Shown piece by piece: positions 13,729 through 32,436 of a stretch of 39,415 nucleotides of DNA. The stretch comes from Candidatus Woesearchaeota archaeon (lineage in GTDB: Archaea; Nanobdellota; Nanobdellia; SCGC-AAA011-G17; JACPIM01): NCBI GenBank assembly GCA_964584825.1, contig CAZPBI010000001.1, positions 6,700 to 46,114 of the forward strand, in the 5' to 3' direction. The translations under genes were made by a program, and so were the position numbers. The notes below the pieces were generated by a model. That model was not told the DNA's origin and did not search any database. It was given only the letters and a program-made list of their open reading frames with translations. Every line of letters begins with the position of its first letter. Positions within the stretch are counted from its first letter, which is position 1.

Positions 13729-14607
13729 TCATTTGAACATCAATCCTAGTAAACTTTCCGGTCTCATCTTCCTTTGAAAAGTTTCATTTGGTGTTTCTGC
13801 CCACTCTAGTTTTAAGGCTCCGCGAAGTCTATTATTGTACCAATTAATCCATTCATTTAATGTAGAAAATCTCCATCTGTGTTTATCATATTCGTACCAT
13901 AATCGTTCAAGTTTTCCATTCGTTTGAGGGTTCTTTACTCGTGAGAAAATAATCTTTATTCCTTGCTTCTTGGTAAATCTTTGATATGTAATAGCCGTAA
14001 AGGTTGTATCATGATCTGCATTAATTGCATGAATAAGAACATTCATATGTGATGCTTCATTTACTGCTGCAGTAGCTATTTCAACTGCTCTTTTTGCACT
14101 CATCCTATTAGATTCCTGTCCTGCAAGAATCTTTCTAGATGCATCATCTTCATAGAGGATACAGTATGGGTGTTTGATACTCGTCCTATGCCAATCTGTG
14201 TGTAATAGACTTCCTGAATGTTTTCTTTCGTATCTACACCTCTTCCGTTTCTTCTGTTTCTTCATATTGGGAATCACTTTGCCTTTCTCTTTCAAGTATT
14301 CATAGAGCTTATTCTTTGCAACTAGAGTCCCTCTTCTCTTGAGTTCAAAGTAGAGTAATCGTGGACTCAGAAACGTTTCCTGAAATGCGTGGTCTGTATT
14401 TTCCTTCTGTTCCTCAGAGATAAAGGTTTTTGGTCTTCTCCCTCGCTTTAATTCCAACATAGTGCCTTTTTCCCTGAAATGTTTCACCATCTGTTGGACT
14501 CTCCTTGTGCTGAGATCATAGACAGAAGCCACATCTGATGGATTTTTTCCATATTTTATGACTTGCCTGGTAAGCTATTTGATTCTCCTCTTGTTGAGTT
14601 TTGTCAT
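13729..14607 (-). pseudogene. DDE (rve-domain) transposase interrupted by an in-frame TAG at codon 11
   Basis: ATG at 14605-14607 gives MTKLNKRRIK, then TAG (14575-14577), then the same frame continues LTRQVIKYGKNPSDVASVYDLSTRRVQQMV... into track ORF 13729..14532. Catalytic-core motifs are LLHTDWH, NADHDTTF and PQTNGKLER. A single change TAG->TGG would restore Trp. Confidence 0.6.
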
Positions 14608-14637
14608 ACAAAGGAAGGAGAATTCACTTATAAAACT

Positions 14638-14666
14638 AATGCGAAATAATTTCCGGGCTCTACATT
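14638..14666. repeat. IS right terminal inverted repeat
   Basis: AATGCGAAATAATTTCCGGGCTCTACATT is the reverse-complement partner of 13690..13718. Confidence 0.7.
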
Positions 14667-14744
14667 ATAAAAATTTAGCAGAAACCTTTAAAAAGTTAAT
14701 TGTGGGTTTTTAACATATCGATGAAAACCTCAGGAGGGTTTAAG

Positions 14745-15080
14745 ATGTCATTAAACAAAGAATCTTCAAAAGAATCAATAGAAAAAGCTTACGAAGCCAT
14801 TGAGATCGCTAAAAAAACTGGCAAAATAAAGAAAGGAATAAATGAAGTAACTAAAATAATAGAAAGAGGACAAGCCAAGTTAGTCATAATTGCTAAAGAT
14901 ACTAATCCTCAGGAAATAATAATGCATATTCCTCTATTATGCGAAGAAAAAGAAACAAAATATGTAATAGTCCCTAGTAAAGAAGACTTGGGTGCTGCTG
15001 CAGGCCTACAAGTTCCTACAAGCGCAGTAGCTATAATACAAGAAGGGGATGCTAAAGATATAATAAAATCCATAAAATAA
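14745..15080 (+). CDS. rpl7ae: 50S ribosomal protein L7Ae (K-turn binding)
   Basis: [31 protein letters not shown]...[22 protein letters not shown] is the classic L7Ae sequence. I place the start at ATG 14745, 7 nt after GGAGGG (14733-14738), not at the track TTG at 14700. Confidence 0.9.
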
Positions 15081-16892: not shown

Positions 16893-19800
16893 ATGACGGT
16901 AATTGAAAAAATATATTTAAGAGGATTTAAGTCATTCGCAAAACCAACAGAAATCCCCATATGTAACGGTTTTAACATTGCAATAGGGCCAAATGGATCT
17001 GGAAAGACTATACATCCTAACACCAAGATAAAACTGGCAAACGGCAGCGAAATCAAAATAGGCAAGTTAGTAGAAAGCCAATTGGGAAAGAATAAGGTTG
17101 AAACAATTGATGATGGAGTCTATTGTGAATCTAAGGAACCAATAGAGATCTTGTCATTAAATCCAATATCAATGAAATTAGAGAAAAAGAAAATTTCTAA
17201 ATTTATTAAAAGAAATGGTGACAAGCATTTATACAGGATAATAACAAAAACAGGGAAAGAAATTATTGCAACCCAAAGCCATCCGCTTATTACATATAAT
17301 AATAAAAAACTTAATAGTACATTGATTAAATACATAAAATTACATCAAAAGATAGCTTTACCTAGGGTGGTTAATTATTATAATAACAAAAAACAAATAA
17401 TTGAAAAACAAGTATTTTCTGTAAGGAAAGTTAATCCGAGTATAGATATATTACCACAAGAGGCAAATTTTTTAGTAAAAGAAACTGCAAACCTACTTGG
17501 ATTAAAAATTAGAAATATAAGAAAACAATATCCAAAATTAGCAGCTTATTGTGAAAATAGATGTTGCCCAACTAGGGATAGTATTAGAGAGATTATAGAC
17601 TTATTTAAGGAAAAATTAGAGATTTTGTATGATATTGAAATAAATATCATATTACACCAATTTAATTTAATTAATGCAATGGATCAACTCGCTTTATCAG
17701 ATAGGTATACTAGTGAAAAACTTGGCCCTAATCTGCAAATAATAAGACAGGATTGGGCACCTAGCAAATTTATAGCAAGGAGAGGAAACTTAGAACACTT
17801 TTTTGAATTTATAGAAAGTACAATTAAGGATAGATTATTAAAAATAAAATACAATTTAATGATTCTTTATAATTTAGCGAATTCTGATATTTTTTGGGAT
17901 GAGGTTATATCTATTAAAAAAGTAAGGGGTACAAGATATATTTATGATTTAACAATACCAGAGAATCATAATTTTATAGGAAATGGGATTTTTGTTCATA
18001 ATTCGAACATAATGGATGCCTTAACATTCGTTCTAGGCAAATCATCTGCAAAATCCATGAGAGCAGAAAGATCCTCAAATCTTATTTACAATGGTGGCAA
18101 AAAAGGTTCACCAGCAAGGGAAGCAGAAGTATCAATTTATTTTTCTAATAAAGAAAAAGAATTTCCATTAGCTACAGAAACTGTAAAAATAACTAGATTA
18201 GTTAAACAATCTGGTAATTCTATATATAAAATAAATGATAAAGGATACACAAGACAACAAGTAGTAGATGTTTTATCAAAAGCAAAGATAGATCCTAACG
18301 GTTACAACATAGTTTTACAGGGAGATATTACCTCATTAGTTACGATGAAACCTGAAGACAGGAGATTAATAATAGAAGATATCTCAGGAATCTCTTTATA
18401 CGAAGACAAAAAACAAAAAGCATTATTAGAATTAAATAAAGTAGAAGAAAAATTAAATGAATCTAACCTCATTTTAAAAGAAAGATCAGCATATTTAAGA
18501 GAATTAAAAGAAGAAAGAGATCAAGCATTAAAATATAAAGAAGTAGAAGAAAAAATAAAAGAAAATAAAGCTACCTATATAAATTTACAAATTAAAGAAA
18601 AAGAAGGAAAGAAAGAAGAAATCGAGAAAAAGACTTCAAAACAGCATGAAACATTAAATATTGTAAATAATAAAATAAAAGAATTAAAAGATGTCATTGA
18701 AAAAAAGAAAAATGAACTAGAATATATAAATAAAGAAATAGAAAATAAAGGTGAAGTCGAACAAGTATTATTACAAAAAGATCTTGAAAATTTAAGAGAA
18801 GACTTGATTAAAAAATCTACAAGGGCAGAAAATGTAAAATCAGAAATAGAAAAAATTACACAAAGAATTCAACAACTAAATAAAGACAAAGAAGAAATAC
18901 AAAAAAAGATACAATATCTAAATGAGCAGAAAAGTAAACTTGAAGACCAAGATTCTGAATTAAAACTGCAAGAATCTAAAATAAAGAAACAAATAACTAA
19001 TTTTAAGCAAGACCATAATTTAACTGACTTCTCTTCTATAGAAAAATTAGAATCAGAAATAGAAAACACGCAAAATAAATCATTCAAATTAAAAGAAGAA
19101 CAAAATCATATTCTTAATTTAATAGAAAAAAATTCCACCGATTTAGAAAGAATACATATAACTATAGAAGAGCAATTATCTCATGAAAATAAAGAAAAAC
19201 TACAAAATTTAAAAAAGATTGAAAAAGAAATAGATTACCTAGTAAATAAATACAATGTAACAATATCACAAATAGAATTAACCCATGACAGTTTAAATAT
19301 AAAGAAATTAGAACTAGGAGAATTACAAGCAACTAAAGTTAGAATCAATGAATCTCTAGAGGGAAATTTAGCAGTAAATACAATATTAAATTCCAAATTT
19401 CCAGGAGTTTATGGTACAATAGCCACTCTAGGTAGAGTAGATCAAAAATATGCCAAAGCAATGGAAGTAGTTGCAAGTTCTAGAATAAACAGCATTATTG
19501 TTGATACAGATTTAACTGCACAAAGATGTATTAATCTATTAAAAGAAAAAAAAGCTGGAACTGCCGTCTTTCTACCATTAAATAAACTAAAAGAAACAAA
19601 TGTCCCAAAAGAATTACAACAATTGAAAAATTTTTCTGGAGTAAAAGATTTAGCTATTAATCTAATAAGTTATGATAAAAAGTACAATAAAGCATTTTCT
19701 TATATTTTTGGTTCAACTTTAGTTGTTGATGACATAATAACTGCAAGGAAAATAGGTATCGGAAGAGCCAGAATGGTAACTTTAGACGGAGATCTAATGG

Positions 19801-21299
19801 AACACTCTGGTGCAATGATAGGGGGCTATAGAAAAAAAACCTTGGGCTTATTCGAACATAAAAATGTAGATAATAAGACTAATGAAATTGAGAATGAAAT
19901 TGAGAATCTTAAATCTAAATTATTAACATTGCAAAAAGAACGAACAGCCAAAAATAATGAAATAGAGAGATTAAAAAATGATAAATCCATTTTACAGGCA
20001 GAATTAGCAAAATTACAAATTGAAAATATAGATGAATTAAAAGAAGAAAGAATAAGATTAACTAAAGAAATTAAAGAATATCAAAATCAATTAAATAAAA
20101 CAGAAAAACAAATTAATGAAACACAAAAAGAATTAGAAAAACTAAAAGTATCAAGAAAACCTACAAAAACAGAAGAAAATCTACAAAATGTTTTGGATGA
20201 ATTAGAGAAAAAACAACTTGAGATTCATGGCAAGATAATACAAAACACTACAGAAATGAAAAATATACAAGATCAAATTTCTACCATCCATAAACCAGAA
20301 TTTGAAAAAATACATGAAATTATCAAACTACATGATAAAGAAGTTGAACAATTTAAAAAAGAATTAAAAAATTTAGGAGAGGAAGTTTCGGATAAAAAAA
20401 ATTTATTAATAGATAAAGAAAAGAAAGAAAAATTATTTAGAGAAAATTATAAATCATTATTCATAAAAAGAAATGAAATCCAAGATCATATAAGTAAATT
20501 AGAATCTAGAATAGGACAAGAAGACTTCAAAGCAAAAGAAATTGAAAAAAGAGTTAATGATATCTATTTAGAAAGAGCTAAAGTAGTTGCAGAACTGGAA
20601 GCACAACAAGCTGAGTTTGAGCCTTATATTGGTACTAAACTAAGAAAAAATATTTTAAAAGAAGATCTCAAAGCAGAAATTATAGAAGCAGAAAAATTAA
20701 TAAAAAATTTTGGAAATATAAACATGAAAGCCTTAGAAGTTTATGAAACTGCAGAAAAAGAATATCAAGAGTTAATTAAAAAATTAGAGGCCTTAAACAT
20801 AGAAAAGGGATCTGTTTTAAACATGATGGCTGAAATTGAAGATAAGAAAAAAAAATCATTTATGAAGACATATAAACAAATAGCTGAAAACTTCAAAAGA
20901 ATGTTTTTACAACTCTCCGCTAAAGGAGATGCATATTTAGATCTAGAAGACAAAGAAAATCCTTTAAACGGTGGTCTAAACATTAATGTAAGGATTGGGG
21001 GCACTAAATTTCTTGATCTACATTCTTTATCTGGCGGAGAAAAAGCATTAACAGCTTTAGCATTTATTTTTGCTATACAAGAATATGAACCATCTTCTTT
21101 TTATTTACTTGATGAAGTAGATGCTGCATTAGACAAAACAAATTCGCAGTTACTATCACAATTAATATCAAACCATGCCAAGAGTTCGCAATACATAGTA
21201 ATTTCACATAACGATCATATAATTACAGAAGCTGATCAGATTTATGGTGTTTCTATGCAACAAAATGGTATTTCTAAAATTGTAAGTCTAAAATTATAA
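16893..21299 (+). CDS. smc: SMC chromosome-segregation ATPase containing an intein in the Walker A loop
   Basis: IYLRGFKSF...IAIGPNGSGK | 332-aa insert | SNIMDALTFVLG. Long coiled coils and a hinge (GVYGTIATLG...VVDT). Signature LSGGEKALTALAFIFAI and Walker B FYLLDEVDAALD. Confidence 0.9.
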   Translation: MTVIEKIYLRGFKSFAKPTEIPICNGFNIAIGPNGSGKTIHPNTKIKLANGSEIKIGKLVESQLGKNKVETIDDGVYCESKEPIEILSLNPISMKLEKKKISKFIKRNGDKHLYRIITKTGKEIIATQSHPLITYNNKKLNSTLIKYIKLHQKIALPRVVNYYNNKKQIIEKQVFSVRKVNPSIDILPQEANFLVKETANLLGLKIRNIRKQYPKLAAYCENRCCPTRDSIREIIDLFKEKLEILYDIEINIILHQFNLINAMDQLALSDRYTSEKLGPNLQIIRQDWAPSKFIARRGNLEHFFEFIESTIKDRLLKIKYNLMILYNLANSDIFWDEVISIKKVRGTRYIYDLTIPENHNFIGNGIFVHNSNIMDALTFVLGKSSAKSMRAERSSNLIYNGGKKGSPAREAEVSIYFSNKEKEFPLATETVKITRLVKQSGNSIYKINDKGYTRQQVVDVLSKAKIDPNGYNIVLQGDITSLVTMKPEDRRLIIEDISGISLYEDKKQKALLELNKVEEKLNESNLILKERSAYLRELKEERDQALKYKEVEEKIKENKATYINLQIKEKEGKKEEIEKKTSKQHETLNIVNNKIKELKDVIEKKKNELEYINKEIENKGEVEQVLLQKDLENLREDLIKKSTRAENVKSEIEKITQRIQQLNKDKEEIQKKIQYLNEQKSKLEDQDSELKLQESKIKKQITNFKQDHNLTDFSSIEKLESEIENTQNKSFKLKEEQNHILNLIEKNSTDLERIHITIEEQLSHENKEKLQNLKKIEKEIDYLVNKYNVTISQIELTHDSLNIKKLELGELQATKVRINESLEGNLAVNTILNSKFPGVYGTIATLGRVDQKYAKAMEVVASSRINSIIVDTDLTAQRCINLLKEKKAGTAVFLPLNKLKETNVPKELQQLKNFSGVKDLAINLISYDKKYNKAFSYIFGSTLVVDDIITARKIGIGRARMVTLDGDLMEHSGAMIGGYRKKTLGLFEHKNVDNKTNEIENEIENLKSKLLTLQKERTAKNNEIERLKNDKSILQAELAKLQIENIDELKEERIRLTKEIKEYQNQLNKTEKQINETQKELEKLKVSRKPTKTEENLQNVLDELEKKQLEIHGKIIQNTTEMKNIQDQISTIHKPEFEKIHEIIKLHDKEVEQFKKELKNLGEEVSDKKNLLIDKEKKEKLFRENYKSLFIKRNEIQDHISKLESRIGQEDFKAKEIEKRVNDIYLERAKVVAELEAQQAEFEPYIGTKLRKNILKEDLKAEIIEAEKLIKNFGNINMKALEVYETAEKEYQELIKKLEALNIEKGSVLNMMAEIEDKKKKSFMKTYKQIAENFKRMFLQLSAKGDAYLDLEDKENPLNGGLNINVRIGGTKFLDLHSLSGGEKALTALAFIFAIQEYEPSSFYLLDEVDAALDKTNSQLLSQLISNHAKSSQYIVISHNDHIITEADQIYGVSMQQNGISKIVSLKL
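17007..18002 (+). other. Intein-like insertion (332 aa) in the SMC P-loop
   Basis: Block A-like TIHPNTKIKLANGSEIKIGKL, block B IATQSHPLI, blocks F/G RYIYDLTIPENHNFIGNGIFVHN followed by Ser+1. Excision restores GPNGSGKSNIMDAL. Confidence 0.8.
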
Positions 21300-21572: not shown

Positions 21573-22058
21573 TTAATAAGTTCTCCTAGTCGGCATTGGT
21601 ATAACACAATCAGGAGCTGGTTCCCTTAACGAAAGTCCTAAAGATTTCATAACTATTCCAGTATCCTCCATTAAAACATGATATCCTGAATCATCACCAT
21701 CAGCTGCTCCTTTAAGTGAATAACGTCTGTCCCTAAGATTTATTTCTCCTATAGGAAATTGATCGTGTGCCAAGTTTAATCTTCCGCAATTTGAAAACAT
21801 TATGGCTATACCAGAAGGTGTTTTTCTATAAAACCTAGTTAACCACACATGCCCTATTGAACAATGTTTATCTCCATATTTACTTTTACCATCTGGTAAA
21901 CTAATAAATATAGCACTAATTGCTCTATTCAATATAAACTCCAAATCTTCAGCATCCTCCGCATTTTCAGCAAGTGTCTTCAATCCTTTACCAATAGATT
22001 CCATAATAGCAGATGATCTTGGTCCAACATCAACATTTAAATTAGCCATATATAACAA
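21573..22058 (-). CDS. Hypothetical soluble protein, no family recognised
   Basis: A 161-aa ORF with higher GC and Arg-rich rather than Lys-rich composition compared with neighbours. Contains HCSIGHVW and NCGRLNLAHDQFP segments. ATG candidates at codons 1 and 4. Confidence 0.45.
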   Translation of the reverse strand: MLYMANLNVDVGPRSSAIMESIGKGLKTLAENAEDAEDLEFILNRAISAIFISLPDGKSKYGDKHCSIGHVWLTRFYRKTPSGIAIMFSNCGRLNLAHDQFPIGEINLRDRRYSLKGAADGDDSGYHVLMEDTGIVMKSLGLSLREPAPDCVIPMPTRRTY

Positions 22059-22138
22059 AAAATATTTACAATATTTAAAAATATCTATAGAGAAAAAGTA
22101 ATAATAAAAAACTTATAAAAAAATAAAAAAAGATAGAC

Positions 22139-23443
22139 TTAATAATAAGTCTGTCCTTCTATAGTTTCAGGTTCTCCACCTTTTTCTGATTTCCCTACTC
22201 TTCTAAAGGCTATAACTAACCCTAATATTACTAAAATTATCACTAAAATTACAAAAGCAATTTCTAATGCTTTCTGTGTATTCTCAAATGTTGGTCTAGT
22301 TTCAATTTTCTTCTCTACAATGTTAGCATTCAAGTTAACTTCCTTAACTTTTATACCGTCTGACATAATGTTAACCTTAAAGTTTTGCTGTCCAGCAGGA
22401 GCATTTTCATTTGCCTTTACAAATACAAATATTTCTCCAGCCTCCCCTTGATCAACAGATACAAAAGCAGGACTTACTCTACTAGTTGCCCATGCTCCAA
22501 CGCCCTCGACTTCTGCAGAATACAATGTCCTTTGATTACCCAGATTAGCAATCATAAATTTATAAGGAACTTCACTACCTTGGGTAACACTCTGTGAGCT
22601 CATGTCAACACTAATAATCGCCTTAGCTATAGCAGTCTCTTCTTGGCCCTCTACTAATATAGTCCTCTTATCTGTTATAGTTTCATGTCCTCTGCTAAAT
22701 TCAACTTCAACTTCTACTGTATACTCACCTGATTTAGCATTCTTAGGAATAAATAACACTAACTCCTCAGTAGATTCAGATGTTTCTTCATCATCATCAT
22801 TACTATCTTCTTCTGCTACTAGTTCATCTATAAATCCCTTAGTACTTATCCCTAATTCAGGTACACTTAGTTTAACTAGAACATCGTCTTCTTTTTTCTC
22901 ACCCAAATTTTCTACTCTAACAACTGCCCTTAAAGCCCTTCCTGCTTCAACAGTGTTACTTGGTAAGAAGATAACATCCAAGATATTTAGTTTATGTCTT
23001 TCCTTTCTAACACCCAATTTAAATGTTTTAGAAAGTTCAGCGCTTCCTACATTATCAAAGATTTCAACATGTAGGGCAAATTCCTCATCTTCATCTAATT
23101 CTATATCATCTGGTATATCTAGATTCAAGAATTTATTATAAATTAAACCCGGTTCAACAGCGAATATTTCTGTTCTATCCTCTACATCACCAAATTCAAA
23201 TCCGCCTATCCATGCCTTAACCCTTGCTCTTTCACTGTCTATATTGGATTTAAACTGTACTCTAATTTCTACATCATCCCCTCTTTCAACTTGTATAATT
23301 TGTCCCTCTTTAACTTCTACTCTGTCAACTTCAATCAAAACATCTTGAAAGTCTTCAGGAGCAGATTCTTGCGCAATAACTAAACTTGATAAAGTACTCA
23401 AGCTAATTAATGCAACAAACAACATAGCTATCAACTTGTTCAT
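22139..23443 (-). CDS. Acidic secreted cell-surface (S-layer/COG1361-like) protein with a C-terminal TM anchor
   Basis: Start moved to the ATG giving MNKLIAMLFVALISLSTLSSLVIAQES (signal peptide). Repeated beta-rich Glu/Asp/Val-rich modules. C-terminal TM IAFVILVIILVILGLVIAF followed by RRVGK. A TATA-like TTTATATATTA lies upstream at about 23493-23504. Confidence 0.55.
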   Translation of the reverse strand: MNKLIAMLFVALISLSTLSSLVIAQESAPEDFQDVLIEVDRVEVKEGQIIQVERGDDVEIRVQFKSNIDSERARVKAWIGGFEFGDVEDRTEIFAVEPGLIYNKFLNLDIPDDIELDEDEEFALHVEIFDNVGSAELSKTFKLGVRKERHKLNILDVIFLPSNTVEAGRALRAVVRVENLGEKKEDDVLVKLSVPELGISTKGFIDELVAEEDSNDDDEETSESTEELVLFIPKNAKSGEYTVEVEVEFSRGHETITDKRTILVEGQEETAIAKAIISVDMSSQSVTQGSEVPYKFMIANLGNQRTLYSAEVEGVGAWATSRVSPAFVSVDQGEAGEIFVFVKANENAPAGQQNFKVNIMSDGIKVKEVNLNANIVEKKIETRPTFENTQKALEIAFVILVIILVILGLVIAFRRVGKSEKGGEPETIEGQTYY

Positions 23444-23719
23444 TGAATATCCCCCCAAACATCATGATTATTATTGCAAAGTGGTAATTCACTAATATAT
23501 AAAGCTTATGGTAATAAATATATTTCATAATAGTAGCAATTTAGTAGTCATTTTATCACTACCAGTAACAAAATTTATTATTTTCTAGTTGTTTGCCAAA
23601 ACAAGTTAACACTATGAGAAATAACATTTAATCAGATTTTTATTTTAATTAGTATTTAAGCCCATTTTCCATTTTTTATGAATTAATTTTTATTATTGTA
23701 GTTACTTTAAGTAATAAAT

Positions 23720-23836
23720 TGGGGATGCCAGGATTTGAACCTGAATCAATCGGTTTCTCTCTATGTATGAATCAATAAAGGCTGGAGCCGATTACACTCA
23801 CCGTGTCTAAGACTAACCGGGTTATGCTACATCCCC
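23720..23836 (-). tRNA. trnW: tRNA-Trp (anticodon CCA) with a canonical 37/38 intron and about 16 extra nt in the D-loop
   Basis: Minus strand: GGGGATG TA GCAT AACCCGGTTA[GTCTTAGACACGGTGA]GTGT A ATCGG CTCCAG[27 nt]A CCGAT TGAT TCAGG TTCAAAT CCTGG CATCCCC A. Acceptor is 7 bp, anticodon stem 5 bp, T-arm 5 bp with a TTCAAAT loop. CCA is not encoded. It is the only GC-rich non-coding island in the window. Confidence 0.8.
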
Positions 23837-23917: not shown

Positions 23918-25747
23918 ATGGAACAAATCTATTTTCCCTATGAAAAACCAAGACAAGTTCAAAAAGCATTAATAACACAAATTCAATCCTGCATAGAAAA
24001 TAAACAAAATCTAATAGCCCATGCTCCTACTGGTTTGGGTAAAACGATAGCATTTCTAAGTCCTGCATTGCCCTATGCTATAAAAAATGACCTTACTTTA
24101 TTTTTTCTAACACCTAAACATTCACAACATCATATCGCAGTAGAAACCCTCAAACTAATAAAAGAAAAATTCAAACTAGATTTTAATATTGTAGATTTTA
24201 TTGGCAAAAAACACATGTGTCTTCAACCAGGTGTTGAAATATTGCCTCAAGGAGAGTTTTATGATTATTGTAGAGAACTAAGAAGAAAAGATCTATGTGA
24301 ATTTTTTCTAAACCTAAAAAATAAACCATTGAGAGATCTTACATTAAATCAAGCTGAACAACCATTGCACGTTGAAGAACTTAATCATATTTGCAGAGAA
24401 CATGGTTTATGTCCCTATGAAATTGCGGGTATTTTAGGAAAAAAGGCAACCGTAATCATAGCAGATTATTATCATTTATTATCTCCATCAATAAGAGACT
24501 CCTTATTCAGCAGAATTCAAAAAGATCTTTCCAAATCGATCATTTACTTTGATGAAGCACATAATCTACCAGAAAAATGCAGAGAACTATTAACAGTAAT
24601 TTTATCTTCATTAACTGTAAATAAATCATTAAAAGAAAATAAAGAATTTAACTTTGATTTCGAAGAAGACTTGTTTAATATACTAAATAATTTATCAGTG
24701 TTATCAAAAAAAATACCTCTAGATAAAGATGAAGCCTTAGTTAAAAAAGAAGAATTCCTTACAGATCGATCATTAATAGAACCAATGAGAGAAGCTGCTG
24801 ATATTGTAAGAGAAAAACAAAAGAGATCCTCTTTAAGCACTGTAGCTAATTTTTTAGAAATATGGAACGGACCAGATCATTCTTTCATAAGAATAATACA
24901 AAGAAGGTTTTCAAAAAATGGTAGACCATATTTTAATCTAACTTATAGATGTCTAGATCCATCTTTATTAATGTCACAATTAAATGTACACACTTTAATT
25001 TTAATGTCGGGAACCTTATCGCCTGTTTCTATGTATTTAGATCTACTAGGTTTAAATAAAAGTAACACCATAACAGTAGAATACTCAAATCCATTTCCTA
25101 TAAATAACAGACTAAATCTAATAGTTCCAACCACTACAACCAAATTTACAGAAAGAAATGAATCCATGTATAAAAGAATATCAAGAATTTGTGCAGATAT
25201 TGCAAATATAACGCCTGGAAATTCAGCGGTATTTTTTCCGTCTTATGAAGTAAGAAATCAAGTTCTTTATTTCTTTAAACACGATTGTGAAAAAACTATA
25301 ATAAATGAAGAACCAAAATTAACAAAACATGAAAAACAACTGCTTATTGAAGAATTTAAATCTAATAAAAATGAAGGTAGTGTTCTATTAGGCGCTTCTT
25401 CTGGTTCATTTGGCGAAGGTATAGACCTTCCAGGAGATTTATTAAAAACAGTAATAATTGTTGGTTTACCACTTGCTAAGCCAGATATAGAAACACAAGA
25501 ATTAATTAATTATTATGACCAAAAATTTGCTAAGGGGTGGGATTATGGTTACATTTATCCTGCAATTACAAAAACAATTCAAAATGCTGGTAGATGTATA
25601 AGATCAGAAAAGGATAGGGGCTGCGTTATTTATTTAGATGTACGTTATGCTTGGGAAAATTATAAAAAATGTTTTCCAAATGATTATAACTTCATAATAA
25701 CAAAATTGCCACAAGAAAAAATTAAGGAATTTTTTAAGAATAAGTAA
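23918..25747 (+). CDS. xpd: XPD/Rad3-family 5'-3' DNA helicase (FeS-cluster helicase)
   Basis: Walker A HAPTGLGKT and DEAH box YFDEAHNL. Cys residues of the FeS domain (HMCLQPG, YDYCRELRRKDLCEF, GLCPYE). C-terminal motifs GSFGEGIDLPG and QNAGRCIRS. Confidence 0.85.
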   Translation: MEQIYFPYEKPRQVQKALITQIQSCIENKQNLIAHAPTGLGKTIAFLSPALPYAIKNDLTLFFLTPKHSQHHIAVETLKLIKEKFKLDFNIVDFIGKKHMCLQPGVEILPQGEFYDYCRELRRKDLCEFFLNLKNKPLRDLTLNQAEQPLHVEELNHICREHGLCPYEIAGILGKKATVIIADYYHLLSPSIRDSLFSRIQKDLSKSIIYFDEAHNLPEKCRELLTVILSSLTVNKSLKENKEFNFDFEEDLFNILNNLSVLSKKIPLDKDEALVKKEEFLTDRSLIEPMREAADIVREKQKRSSLSTVANFLEIWNGPDHSFIRIIQRRFSKNGRPYFNLTYRCLDPSLLMSQLNVHTLILMSGTLSPVSMYLDLLGLNKSNTITVEYSNPFPINNRLNLIVPTTTTKFTERNESMYKRISRICADIANITPGNSAVFFPSYEVRNQVLYFFKHDCEKTIINEEPKLTKHEKQLLIEEFKSNKNEGSVLLGASSGSFGEGIDLPGDLLKTVIIVGLPLAKPDIETQELINYYDQKFAKGWDYGYIYPAITKTIQNAGRCIRSEKDRGCVIYLDVRYAWENYKKCFPNDYNFIITKLPQEKIKEFFKNK

Positions 25748-29343: not shown

Positions 29344-30807
29344 GTGGGAAATATACCAAAAGAGATTAAACGTGTAGATGAAGTAACTTGGGAAATTCCA
29401 ACTAGCTATAAAGAAGGAATGAACGTTCCAGCTAGGATTATAGCAACTGAAAAACTCATTAAAGAAATGGATATGGGTGTCTATGATCAGATTACAAATG
29501 TAGCAACTCTTCCAGGAATCCAAAAATATGCCTTATGTATGCCAGATGGACACTGGGGTTATGGATTCCCAATTGGTGGGGTTGCTGCTTTTGATCCTGA
29601 AGAAGGCGGAGTTATTTCACCTGGCGGTGTAGGTTTTGATATAAATTGCGGAATGTCTTTAATAAAAACAAATCTCACAGAAAAAGACTTAGAGCAACAC
29701 AAAAAAGAAATCTTAAATAAATTATTCGATAGGGTTCCTGCTGGTGTCGGTTCATCTGGTTTTGTTAAACTTTCTCATAGTGAATTTAAAAAAGTTGTAG
29801 AGGAAGGGAGTAAATGGTGTGTTGATAATGGATATGGCTGGGATAAAGACTTAACATTTACTGAAGAGGATGGGTGTATCGAAGGTGCAGATTCTTCTAA
29901 GATTTCTGATAAGGTAATAAAAAGAGGACTAAACCAAATTGGAACATTAGGAAGTGGAAATCATTATTTAGAAGTTCAAGTTGTAAAAGAAGAAAACATT
30001 AAAGATAAAGAAATAGCTAAAAAATTAGGATTTTTTCCTGGACAAATTGTAATTATGTGGCATTGTGGGAGTCGTGGTGCAGGACATCAAATAGCTACTG
30101 ATTATTTAATTGAATTTCTTAATGTAATGGAATCTAAGTACAAAATAAAAATTTTAGATAGAGAATTGGCTTGTGCTCCATTCCATAGCCCAGAAGGCCA
30201 AAATTATTTTGCTGCAATGAAATGCGGAATTAATATGTCCTTTGCAAATAGACAAGTAATAGGACATAGGGTAAGAGAAGTTTTTTCTCAAGTATTCAAA
30301 CAAGACGCTGAAAGTTTAGGTATGGATTTAGTATATTCTGTAGCACATAATACGGCCAAATTAGAAAAACATAATGTTGATGGTAAAATAAAAGAGTTAA
30401 TTATACATCGGAAAGGAAGCACAAGGAGCTTTAGCCCAGGAAGAGAAGAAATTCCAAAAGCCCACAGAGATTTTGGTCAAGTCGTTATCATCGGAGGCTC
30501 TATGATGACTGGTTCTTATGTTCTAGTCGGAACTGATGAGGCAATGAAAAAAACATTCGGATCAAGCGCACATGGCTCAGGAAGAACAATGTCAAAAAAA
30601 AAAAAAAAAAGAATGTTTAGAGGTGAGAGGGTACAAAAAGAAATGGAAAAAATGGGAATTCTAGTTAAGTCTGTTTCAATGAGCGGATTAGCAGAAGAAT
30701 CAGGTCCAAGCTATAAAGACATCGATATGGTAATAAATGCAACTGATTTAGCTGGGATTAGTAAACCGATAGTAAAACTTCTTCCGCTGCTTAATATAAA
30801 GGGATAG
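29344..30807 (+). CDS. rtcB: RNA-splicing ligase RtcB
   Basis: MPDGHWGYGFPIGGV, GFDINCGM, GSGNHYLEVQ, HCGSRGAGHQ, VAHNTA, HRKGSTR and SSAHGSGR are all RtcB active-site blocks. GTG start. No intein. Confidence 0.92.
   Translation: MGNIPKEIKRVDEVTWEIPTSYKEGMNVPARIIATEKLIKEMDMGVYDQITNVATLPGIQKYALCMPDGHWGYGFPIGGVAAFDPEEGGVISPGGVGFDINCGMSLIKTNLTEKDLEQHKKEILNKLFDRVPAGVGSSGFVKLSHSEFKKVVEEGSKWCVDNGYGWDKDLTFTEEDGCIEGADSSKISDKVIKRGLNQIGTLGSGNHYLEVQVVKEENIKDKEIAKKLGFFPGQIVIMWHCGSRGAGHQIATDYLIEFLNVMESKYKIKILDRELACAPFHSPEGQNYFAAMKCGINMSFANRQVIGHRVREVFSQVFKQDAESLGMDLVYSVAHNTAKLEKHNVDGKIKELIIHRKGSTRSFSPGREEIPKAHRDFGQVVIIGGSMMTGSYVLVGTDEAMKKTFGSSAHGSGRTMSKKKKKRMFRGERVQKEMEKMGILVKSVSMSGLAEESGPSYKDIDMVINATDLAGISKPIVKLLPLLNIKG
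30594..30610 (+). repeat. A17 homopolymer inside the rtcB coding sequence
   Basis: TCA AAA AAA AAA AAA AAA AGA encodes SKKKKKR, directly after the catalytic HGSGR block. It is the longest homopolymer I saw in the window. Confidence 0.9.
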
Positions 30808-32010: not shown

Positions 32011-32436
32011 ATGAAAAACTACCAATTTTTTGATCACACATCAGATGTATTATTTGAGGCTTATGGTAAAACACTAAATGAACTATTCACAAACTGTGCC
32101 TTAGCTTTAGAAGAAACTCAAGTAGATTTAAAAGACATTAAAGAAAAACAGAAACAGACAATAAAACTAAAAAATAGATCTATTGAGATGCTCTTATTTG
32201 ATTTCTTACAAGAACTGATTTATGTAAAAGATGCAAAGAAATTAGTATTCTCGAGATTTAATGTAAAAGTAAAGCAAGTCGGTAATGAAGCAACTATTAT
32301 TGCAGAATGTTCTGGCGAAAAATTAGATATGAAAAAACATGAATTAAAAGTAGATGTAAAAGCCATGACTTTACATCAATTCTATGTGAAAAAATTAAAA
32401 GATAATTGGATAGCTAGAATTATTTTAGACATTTAA
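32011..32436 (+). CDS. Archease (RtcB activator)
   Basis: YQFFDHTSDVLFEAYGKTLNELF... and VKAMTLHQF. 141 aa, typical archease. Confidence 0.8.
   Translation: MKNYQFFDHTSDVLFEAYGKTLNELFTNCALALEETQVDLKDIKEKQKQTIKLKNRSIEMLLFDFLQELIYVKDAKKLVFSRFNVKVKQVGNEATIIAECSGEKLDMKKHELKVDVKAMTLHQFYVKKLKDNWIARIILDI

Follow-up and report, generated by a model that had tools for sequence, protein, structure and literature searches.

Class 1 inteins are defined by a serine, threonine or cysteine at their first position (PMC5222942). As of 2009, threonine had not been observed there in a natural intein, and the same study reports that an S1T mutant of an archaeal Ser1 intein, other than the one described here, splices (PMC2807308). 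For inteins with serine at both position 1 and position +1, a [R/K]-His motif specific to them and located upstream of block B, designated NX, was required for splicing in the three cases tested (Pasch et al. 2023, PMC10189870). Inteins have been found in the archaeal SMC ATPase, which a passage in the survey of Novikova et al. 2015 (PMC4760082) counts among their hosts. Here we describe an intein in the smc gene of a Candidatus Woesearchaeota archaeon (assembly GCA_964584825.1, contig CAZPBI010000001.1, positions 6,700 to 46,114), which interrupts the Walker A loop (P-loop), starts with Thr, and appears to have lost its homing endonuclease. The whole stretch of 39,415 nt that was analyzed is referred to as the window.

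Like the intein of the window, the S1T mutant (PMC2807308) is an archaeal intein of the Ser1 type with Thr as its first residue, and it retained splicing experimentally, but it is an engineered variant in a different host protein and intein lineage, whereas the window would hold a natural occurrence. The cysteine-less Ser1/Ser+1 oxyester inteins (PMC10189870), such as Psp Pol-1 and PolB16 OarG, share with it the oxyester chemistry predicted at both junctions and the block B His; they carry Ser1 and the NX His, where the window has Thr1 and Arg69. The P-loop inteins of MCM/CDC21-1 (e.g. 6rpq) are likewise inserted directly after the Walker A Lys (GxxGxGK↓C, the arrow marking the insertion point), contain a homologous tandem helix-turn-helix (HTH) module and are among the best fold matches of the window intein. 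They differ in host and in having Cys1, and their HTH repeats are still detected by Pfam HTH_3, unlike those of the window.

Identification of the Intein in smc

The smc open reading frame (ORF; 16893..21299, + strand) encodes 1468 aa and is open for all 1468 codons. The insert is flanked by archaeal-type SMC sequence, which matches NCBIfam TIGR02169 with 780 bits (cut-off 729), protein residues 371-1468 corresponding to model positions 37-1165, and in which a Pfam scan found SMC_N and SMC_hinge. The Walker A sequence GPNGSGK ends at residue 38 and is followed by 332 residues (17007-18002) before the expected SNIMDALTFVLG. The first codon of the insert is ACT (Thr39 of the ORF, 17007-17009), its final codons are CAT AAT (His-Asn, 17997-18002), and the codon that follows is TCG (Ser, 18003-18005). 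In-silico excision gives an SMC of 1136 aa with the motifs GPNGSGKS, LSGGE and FYLLDEVD, and over its first 140 residues this product is 66–71% identical, with zero gap openings, to SMC fragments from Nanoarchaeota and Woesearchaeota that have no intein. The insertion is in frame at a conserved host site, and its removal restores a collinear SMC. An earlier reading made from the sequence alone (the sequence-only reading) had placed the insert at 17007-18002 and argued that precise excision would yield a 1136-aa SMC. The coordinates and motifs proved exact, blocks A, B, F and G were all found by codon and column analysis, and the restored Walker A and gapless alignment agree with the excision that it proposed. 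The G+C content of the insert (0.27) is close to that of the flanks (0.25–0.26) and to the overall value of about 27–28%, and the opposite strand within the insert is free of ORFs of 80 aa or more.

Curated intein models gave scores for the insert of 94.6 bits (Pfam Intein_splicing, PF14890; cut-off 35.8), 56.2 bits (TIGR01445, intein_Nterm; cut-off 24.5) and 34.5 bits (TIGR01443, intein_Cterm; cut-off 15.6). These are so far above the curated thresholds that chance matching can be set aside, and the Hint-domain similarity that had been proposed from motifs was confirmed by every one of the models. Among solved structures, the closest in sequence is the CDC21-1 (MCM) intein of Pyrococcus horikoshii, 6rpq (E = 1.5e-21). 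An AlphaFold2 model of the intein, built on an 11-sequence alignment, has a Hint fold, with a mean predicted local distance difference test score (pLDDT) of 85.7 and a predicted template modelling score (pTM) of 0.78. Foldseek matched this model to solved inteins with E values of 1e-12 to 1e-8, and the target-normalised TM-scores for the mini-inteins 6rpp, 4o1s, 4o1r and 1mi8 were 0.86–0.90. The insert is an intein, a conclusion about which we have practically no doubt. The class 1 feature set is present (Thr89 and His92, Asp314, His331-Asn332 and Ser+1) and, judged from its sequence, the element is a class 1 intein of a widespread SMC P-loop family, lying between Lys38 and the Walker A Ser.

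The SMC P-Loop Intein Family

When 1.84 billion representatives were searched exhaustively, the intein as query gave 1838 matches, and many of the best 150 of these were SMC proteins of 1100–1800 aa in which the intein starts at about residue 40. When the N-terminal 470 residues were used, SMC fragments were retrieved that carry Intein_splicing at the same place, with or without LAGLIDADG_3 (PF14528). A word-index search with the intein alone or with the helical-module alignment gave no matches, probably because of the limits of a word prefilter on Lys-rich sequence. In the representatives and 160 fetched loci together, the GxNGxGK site is occupied in about 105 SMC sequences, of which 77 have Cys1, 28 have Ser1 and none has Thr1. 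Among them are 91 distinct complete SMC P-loop inteins, all terminating in His-Asn followed by Ser or Thr. Their archaeal hosts are Woesearchaeota, Nanoarchaeota, Aenigmatarchaeota, Micrarchaeota, Iainarchaeota and Methanosarcinales, and their bacterial hosts Acidobacteriota, Patescibacteria and Blastocatellia. The remark in the sequence-only reading that SMC is not a classical intein host therefore does not hold, since it is both a known host (in the passage of PMC4760082 mentioned above) and, from the 91 inteins, a common one. Host, insertion site and endonuclease loss are all of known kinds, and apart from Thr1 the element is an ordinary member of a family that is abundant in DPANN archaea.

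A neighbour-joining tree based on both Hint halves separates the SMC inteins with Cys1 from those with Ser1, as two clades, and places the window intein inside the Ser1 clade, as sister to inteins from Woesearchaeota and Nanoarchaeia metagenome-assembled genomes (MAGs). These closest relatives (P0121/L003 from a Candidatus Nanoarchaeia MAG, L001 and L002 from Candidatus Woesearchaeota MAGs) have the identical insertion point, GxNGxGK↓S-N, and share the Hint blocks, the His-Asn/Ser+1 end and the helical module that follows the endonuclease. They differ in having Ser1 (Cys1 in the other clade), a LAGLIDADG endonuclease and lengths of 520–553 aa, where the window intein has Thr1, no endonuclease core and only 332 aa. 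Identity between the window intein and these closest relatives was 48–56%, over intein residues ~124-332. The best intein matches in GTDB genomes and JGI metagenomes reached only 51–56%, over the C-terminal part alone, and no sister allele, empty or occupied, was found there. The nearest relatives outside SMC are the MCM P-loop inteins (GDPGTGK↓C), and this kinship, together with the match to 6rpq, suggests that inteins have moved between the similar Walker A target sites of SMC and MCM.

Threonine at Position 1

In every alignment, Thr1 sits in the nucleophile column that is otherwise occupied by Ser1 or Cys1. A hidden Markov model built from the N-termini of SMC inteins was run on all collected proteins and six-frame translations, and recovered 247 distinct related intein N-termini from many hosts: 183 with Cys, 63 with Ser, one probable misregistration and none with Thr. 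The unusual first residue pointed out in the sequence-only reading thus stands out both among the inteins of the SMC site and among these 247 related N-termini. Alternative registers were tried. An N-extein ending in GKT was rejected as it leaves either a non-Asn intein terminus or an extra Walker A residue, and a start at Cys2, as might be read in 'SC…' relatives, has the same faults, position 2 being variable (C, L, A, T, S, I or V). The Ser1 codons of the relatives are TCA, AGT, TCT and TCG, and ACT of the window is one base from TCT and from AGT; we infer that Thr1 derives from a Ser1 ancestor by a single-base change. Thr1 is a chemically conservative, small mechanistic variant that has been predicted and mimicked by mutagenesis. 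No report of a natural Thr1 intein was found in the literature, with coverage that was incomplete, so that this is absence of evidence only.

The other catalytic residues are intact. Thr89, His92, Asp314, His331, Asn332 and Ser+1 fall in columns without any variation (100% conservation) among 90 SMC inteins, and the other departures from conserved columns are mostly conservative (V8I, L34I, E72D, V94L, M95I, L110I, I300V and V312I). At the NX position, our alignment has His in 57% of Ser1 inteins versus 2% of Cys1 inteins, and the Ser1 inteins themselves divide by site: [KR]R is found in 28/30 of those in P-loops and [RK]H in 35/35 of the others. Ser1-clade SMC inteins without the NX His include P0001, P0002, P0005, P0121, L001, L002 and L081-L090. 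The residue directly before the block B His also separates the clades, being Cys (TGCHP) in 17/19 Ser1-clade members and Tyr in 96% of the Cys1 clade. The combination of [KR]R and TGCHP in the Ser1 clade may represent another route to the activation of Ser1, or may mark a recent switch from Cys1 to Ser1.

The start of the window intein, TIHPNTK (17007-17027), resembles the SYHP[D/S/N]TE of MCM Ser1 inteins at the MEQQ↓S site (e.g. SYHPNTKLML of P0152), and is closer to these than to starts within its own clade (SCSYDT, SLSGES). Its His3-Pro4 pair occurs in no other SMC intein sampled. Perhaps this pair, or Lys73-His74, both unusual for the clade, could compensate for the missing NX His.

We put the probability of the full reading, in which Thr1 is real and the intein competent for splicing, at roughly 0.6. 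Several observations weigh against it. Thr1 is a single base in one contig, an exact look-up of the protein gave no record, and no second copy of the intein was present in the protein collection, the GTDB species representatives or the metagenome contigs searched; the lack of Thr1 elsewhere may also mean that selection usually acts against it. The NX His is replaced by Arg69 (Lys68-Arg69), and the Cys typical of the clade is replaced by Ser91 (TQSHP), as it is in L082, so that activation of the nucleophile could be poor. On the same grounds, the element might instead be a normal Ser1 intein into which an error of sequencing or consensus calling has put Thr1, or Thr1 might be a recent mutation by which the first step of splicing is blocked or crippled and smc left null or hypomorphic; the one-base distance of ACT from the Ser codons TCT and AGT would fit either case, as would a lineage without the NX His in which the window has also lost Cys91. 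We consider this unlikely, if far from negligible, because the 1468-codon ORF is intact, as are the SMC and intein catalytic motifs, because the changes within the Hint domain are for the most part conservative, and because the S1T mutant splices (PMC2807308). Should the base be an error, what remains would be an ordinary Ser1 intein, and only the claim for Thr would fall.

Continued selection for splicing would be expected at this site, as the intein splits Walker A and selection on SMC function should also select for its removal; the intact ORF, the catalytic motifs and the conservative changes in the Hint domain fit with this. The more specific proposal, that the window holds a natural, splicing-competent intein with a Thr nucleophile, from an oxyester lineage without the NX His reported to be important in the activation of Ser1, is put forward tentatively.

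Loss of the Endonuclease and Retention of a Helical Module

A Pfam scan of the insert found no LAGLIDADG or HNH family, no PF14528 and no other nuclease, and the count of LAGLIDADG motifs was 0. In relatives (P0001, P0002, P0005, P0007 and others) block B is followed by a two-motif LAGLIDADG endonuclease (RxLGYxxGDG … LLRFGI … YYxxxIxG), and in the family alignment the stretch that starts with RxLGYxxGDG and closes this domain is cleanly missing from the window. The window sequence resumes at '…KxxxL…NPNxDLLPxEVN…YPxLAAYxENRCxPSRxGL…' and continues through to block F. All relatives in the Ser1 clade are 520–553 aa long and have LAGLIDADG, leaving the window intein as the sole shortened member of this clade in the sample; from the length difference, the deleted core is about 200 aa. 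In the model, pLDDT falls below 50 only at the junction (intein residues 122-145). From the alignment, the endonuclease is absent through internal deletion of the LAGLIDADG core of a bifunctional intein, with a disordered scar left behind, and an element without this core should no longer home.

The 146-residue helical module that was retained keeps every invariant residue of the alignment with its SMC intein relatives. It has no direct match in Pfam, including HTH_3, and when searched in isolation against the PDB with Foldseek there was no significant match (best E = 0.93). The equivalent segment of MCM P-loop inteins consists of two XRE-type HTH_3 repeats (Pfam E = 3.8e-19, two matched stretches), and hhalign aligned the profile of the SMC-intein module to that of the MCM-intein module with 97.9% probability (E = 4.1e-13, 149 columns). 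The region is presumably a diverged tandem-HTH accessory module of the lost endonuclease, with a DNA-binding function. The sequence-only reading had described a helical region between blocks B and F with no recognizable endonuclease motif. The absence of LAGLIDADG and HNH was upheld by Pfam, but the region itself is no novel domain: by alignment it is what the deletion left of a bifunctional intein, and by profile-profile comparison it is homologous to a tandem HTH_3-type module; a structure prediction of this region, which had been proposed as a check, gave a confident fold (AlphaFold2 pLDDT 89.6 for the module modelled alone).

The same architecture, a Hint domain with tandem XRE-type HTH_3 repeats and no LAGLIDADG core, is seen in two MCM P-loop inteins (P0199, residues ~323-656, and P0136, residues ~80-391), which argues that it arose more than once. 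This recurrence, along with the confident fold and preserved invariant residues of the window module and the NPNxDLL motif kept by two further shortened SMC inteins (P0146 and P0149), would be accounted for if the module had a function of its own, the excised intein binding DNA or DNA binding modulating the splicing of SMC; such a role would explain how the module survived loss of the nuclease, and is compatible with the history favoured here. We think it improbable, as most endonuclease-less SMC inteins (forms of 162–225 aa) have dropped the module too, that of the window no longer scores as HTH_3 in Pfam, and its retention may merely reflect the position or recency of the deletion.

Proposed History and Route of Splicing

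From the comparison with its relatives, the ancestor of the window intein would have been bifunctional, a LAGLIDADG intein with Ser1. Its endonuclease core would then have been lost by an internal deletion that spared the tandem HTH-like, DNA-binding module, after which the intein would have been kept only because SMC needs its excision by splicing, and a single-base change would have converted Ser1 to Thr1. In the predicted reaction, the hydroxyl of Thr1 attacks the carbonyl of Lys(-1) in an N-O acyl shift, presumably aided by Thr89, His92 and Asp314, and the resulting oxyester would be transferred to Ser+1. Cyclization of Asn332, aided by His331, would release the intein, and an O-N shift would join GPNGSGK to SNIMDAL to give an active SMC of 1136 aa. 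The predicted ligated peptide is GSGKSNIMDALTFVLGK, and the unspliced junctions would read …GSGK-TIHPNTK… and …FVHN-SNIMDAL…. Class 1 splicing through a Thr1 oxyester is the most likely route, possibly a slow one.

Inteins without a nucleophile at residue 1 splice by other routes (PMC2807308, PMC5222942), and given an active site that is unusual in lacking the NX His, one might suppose that Thr1 is bypassed, with Ser+1 attacking directly (class 2-like) or an internal nucleophile doing so (class 3-like). We consider this very improbable. Thr is itself a competent nucleophile, and the presence of Ser or Cys at position 1 in every relative indicates a conserved nucleophile position, which also makes class 2 (the KlbA type, with Ala1 and direct attack by +1) unlikely for an intein with Thr1. 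Class 3 was ruled out on residue 1 and on its Trp-Cys-Thr triplet, the positions of which are occupied by Leu94 (B:12), Asp314 (F:4) and Val330 (G:5); the lack of a block F Cys, noted earlier from the sequence, was confirmed. That the insert is not an intein at all, but an assembly chimera or an unrelated insertion, can be dismissed, since the sole point in its favour is that chimeric-looking intein ORFs do exist in public data (P0058), and it is already refuted by an in-frame insert with exact canonical boundaries and the G+C of its flanks, by full Hint profile and fold matches, and by dozens of homologues at the identical site.

P0058 itself is a 496-aa sequence in ENA that consists of an SMC N-terminus with a Ser1 mini-intein and continues directly as a secretion ATPase, VirB11/FlaI-like, in which there is a second intein. 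Misassembly could account for it, or recombination across similar intein sequences; the ATPase assignment was read from the sequence without a profile search.

Genomic Surroundings

The coordinates of the intein, its parts and other features of the window are collected in Table 1. The neighbours of smc are ordinary archaeal chromosomal genes, and include those for TFE-alpha, Nre, ribosomal proteins L15e and L7Ae, RNase P Rpr2, a GluRS-type tRNA synthetase, XPD, OapC, RtcB and archease, along with type IV pilus-like T2SSF/T2SSE genes. The closest SMC homologues are labelled Nanoarchaeota or Woesearchaeota, which, along with a G+C of about 28%, makes a DPANN archaeon the most likely source. RtcB is a frequent intein host, and neither its gene nor any other in the window was found to carry a second intein. 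The tRNA of 117 nt predicted by Rfam but not by ARAGORN is consistent with an intron-containing archaeal tRNA. The window has a single local rise in G+C (0.356 at 14001-15000); the ORF with an integrase core domain is located there, and probably represents the remains of an insertion sequence or integrase. Of the two ORFs downstream of smc, that of 161 aa has no Pfam match, and that of 439 aa, with weak Ig-like/NEW3 Pfam matches, may encode a surface protein.

Table 1. Features of the smc intein and of the surrounding window (nucleotide positions within the window).
Feature	Position	Strand	Evidence
N-extein, SMC residues 1-38, ending GPNGSGK	16893..17006	+	ORF, SMC_N/TIGR02169, collinear with intein-free homologues
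Whole intein, 332 aa, endonuclease-less derivative of the Ser1 clade	17007..18002	+	PF14890, TIGR01445, TIGR01443, AlphaFold2, Foldseek
Thr1 codon ACT, predicted N-terminal nucleophile	17007..17009	+	Aligns with Ser1/Cys1 of other SMC P-loop inteins
N-terminal Hint half, intein residues 1-121 (block A, NX position, block B)	17007..17369	+	TIGR01445 match (residues 2-96), column analysis, beta-strand model (pLDDT 85-95)
NX position, Lys68-Arg69	17208-17213	+	Column analysis
Block B, Thr89-x-x-His92	17271-17282	+	Column analysis
Putative deletion scar/linker, intein residues 122-145	17370..17441	+	Gap in family alignment; pLDDT <50
Retained helical module, intein residues 146-291, divergent tandem HTH_3 (XRE-type)-like	17442..17879	+	SMC intein alignment, hhalign, AlphaFold2
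C-terminal Hint half, intein residues 292-332	17880..18002	+	TIGR01443 match, invariant columns
Block F, Asp314	17946-17948	+	Invariant column
Block G, His331-Asn332	17997-18002	+	Invariant columns
C-extein, SMC residues 371-1468 from Ser+1 (Walker A Ser), stop included	18003..21299	+	Hinge, LSGGE and Walker B FYLLDEVD intact
ORF with rve integrase core domain	13729-14532	-	E = 4.7e-9
ORF pair downstream of smc; GC skew of the region strongly negative	21573-23458	-	
tRNA, 117 nt	23720-23836	-	Rfam, 42 bits; not called by ARAGORN
XPD-type helicase, intein-free	23918-25747	+	
RtcB, intein-free	29344-30807	+	
Archease (RtcB activator), ~1.2 kb downstream of RtcB	32011-32436	+	

Significance

If Thr1 is real and active, the window intein would fill a long-standing gap among the natural nucleophiles of inteins, as the first residues known so far are Cys, Ser, Ala, Pro and Gln, and Thr is unreported. 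An active intein would also show another way to activate a hydroxyl nucleophile without the NX His, and would provide a natural template for oxyester splicing by a beta-branched nucleophile in that setting. As a cysteine-independent scaffold, it would be relevant to cysteine-less inteins for protein engineering under oxidising conditions. The element also clearly illustrates the homing cycle of inteins at a late stage, in which the endonuclease appears to be gone and the splicing domain would be kept by the dependence of an important chromosome-organising ATPase.

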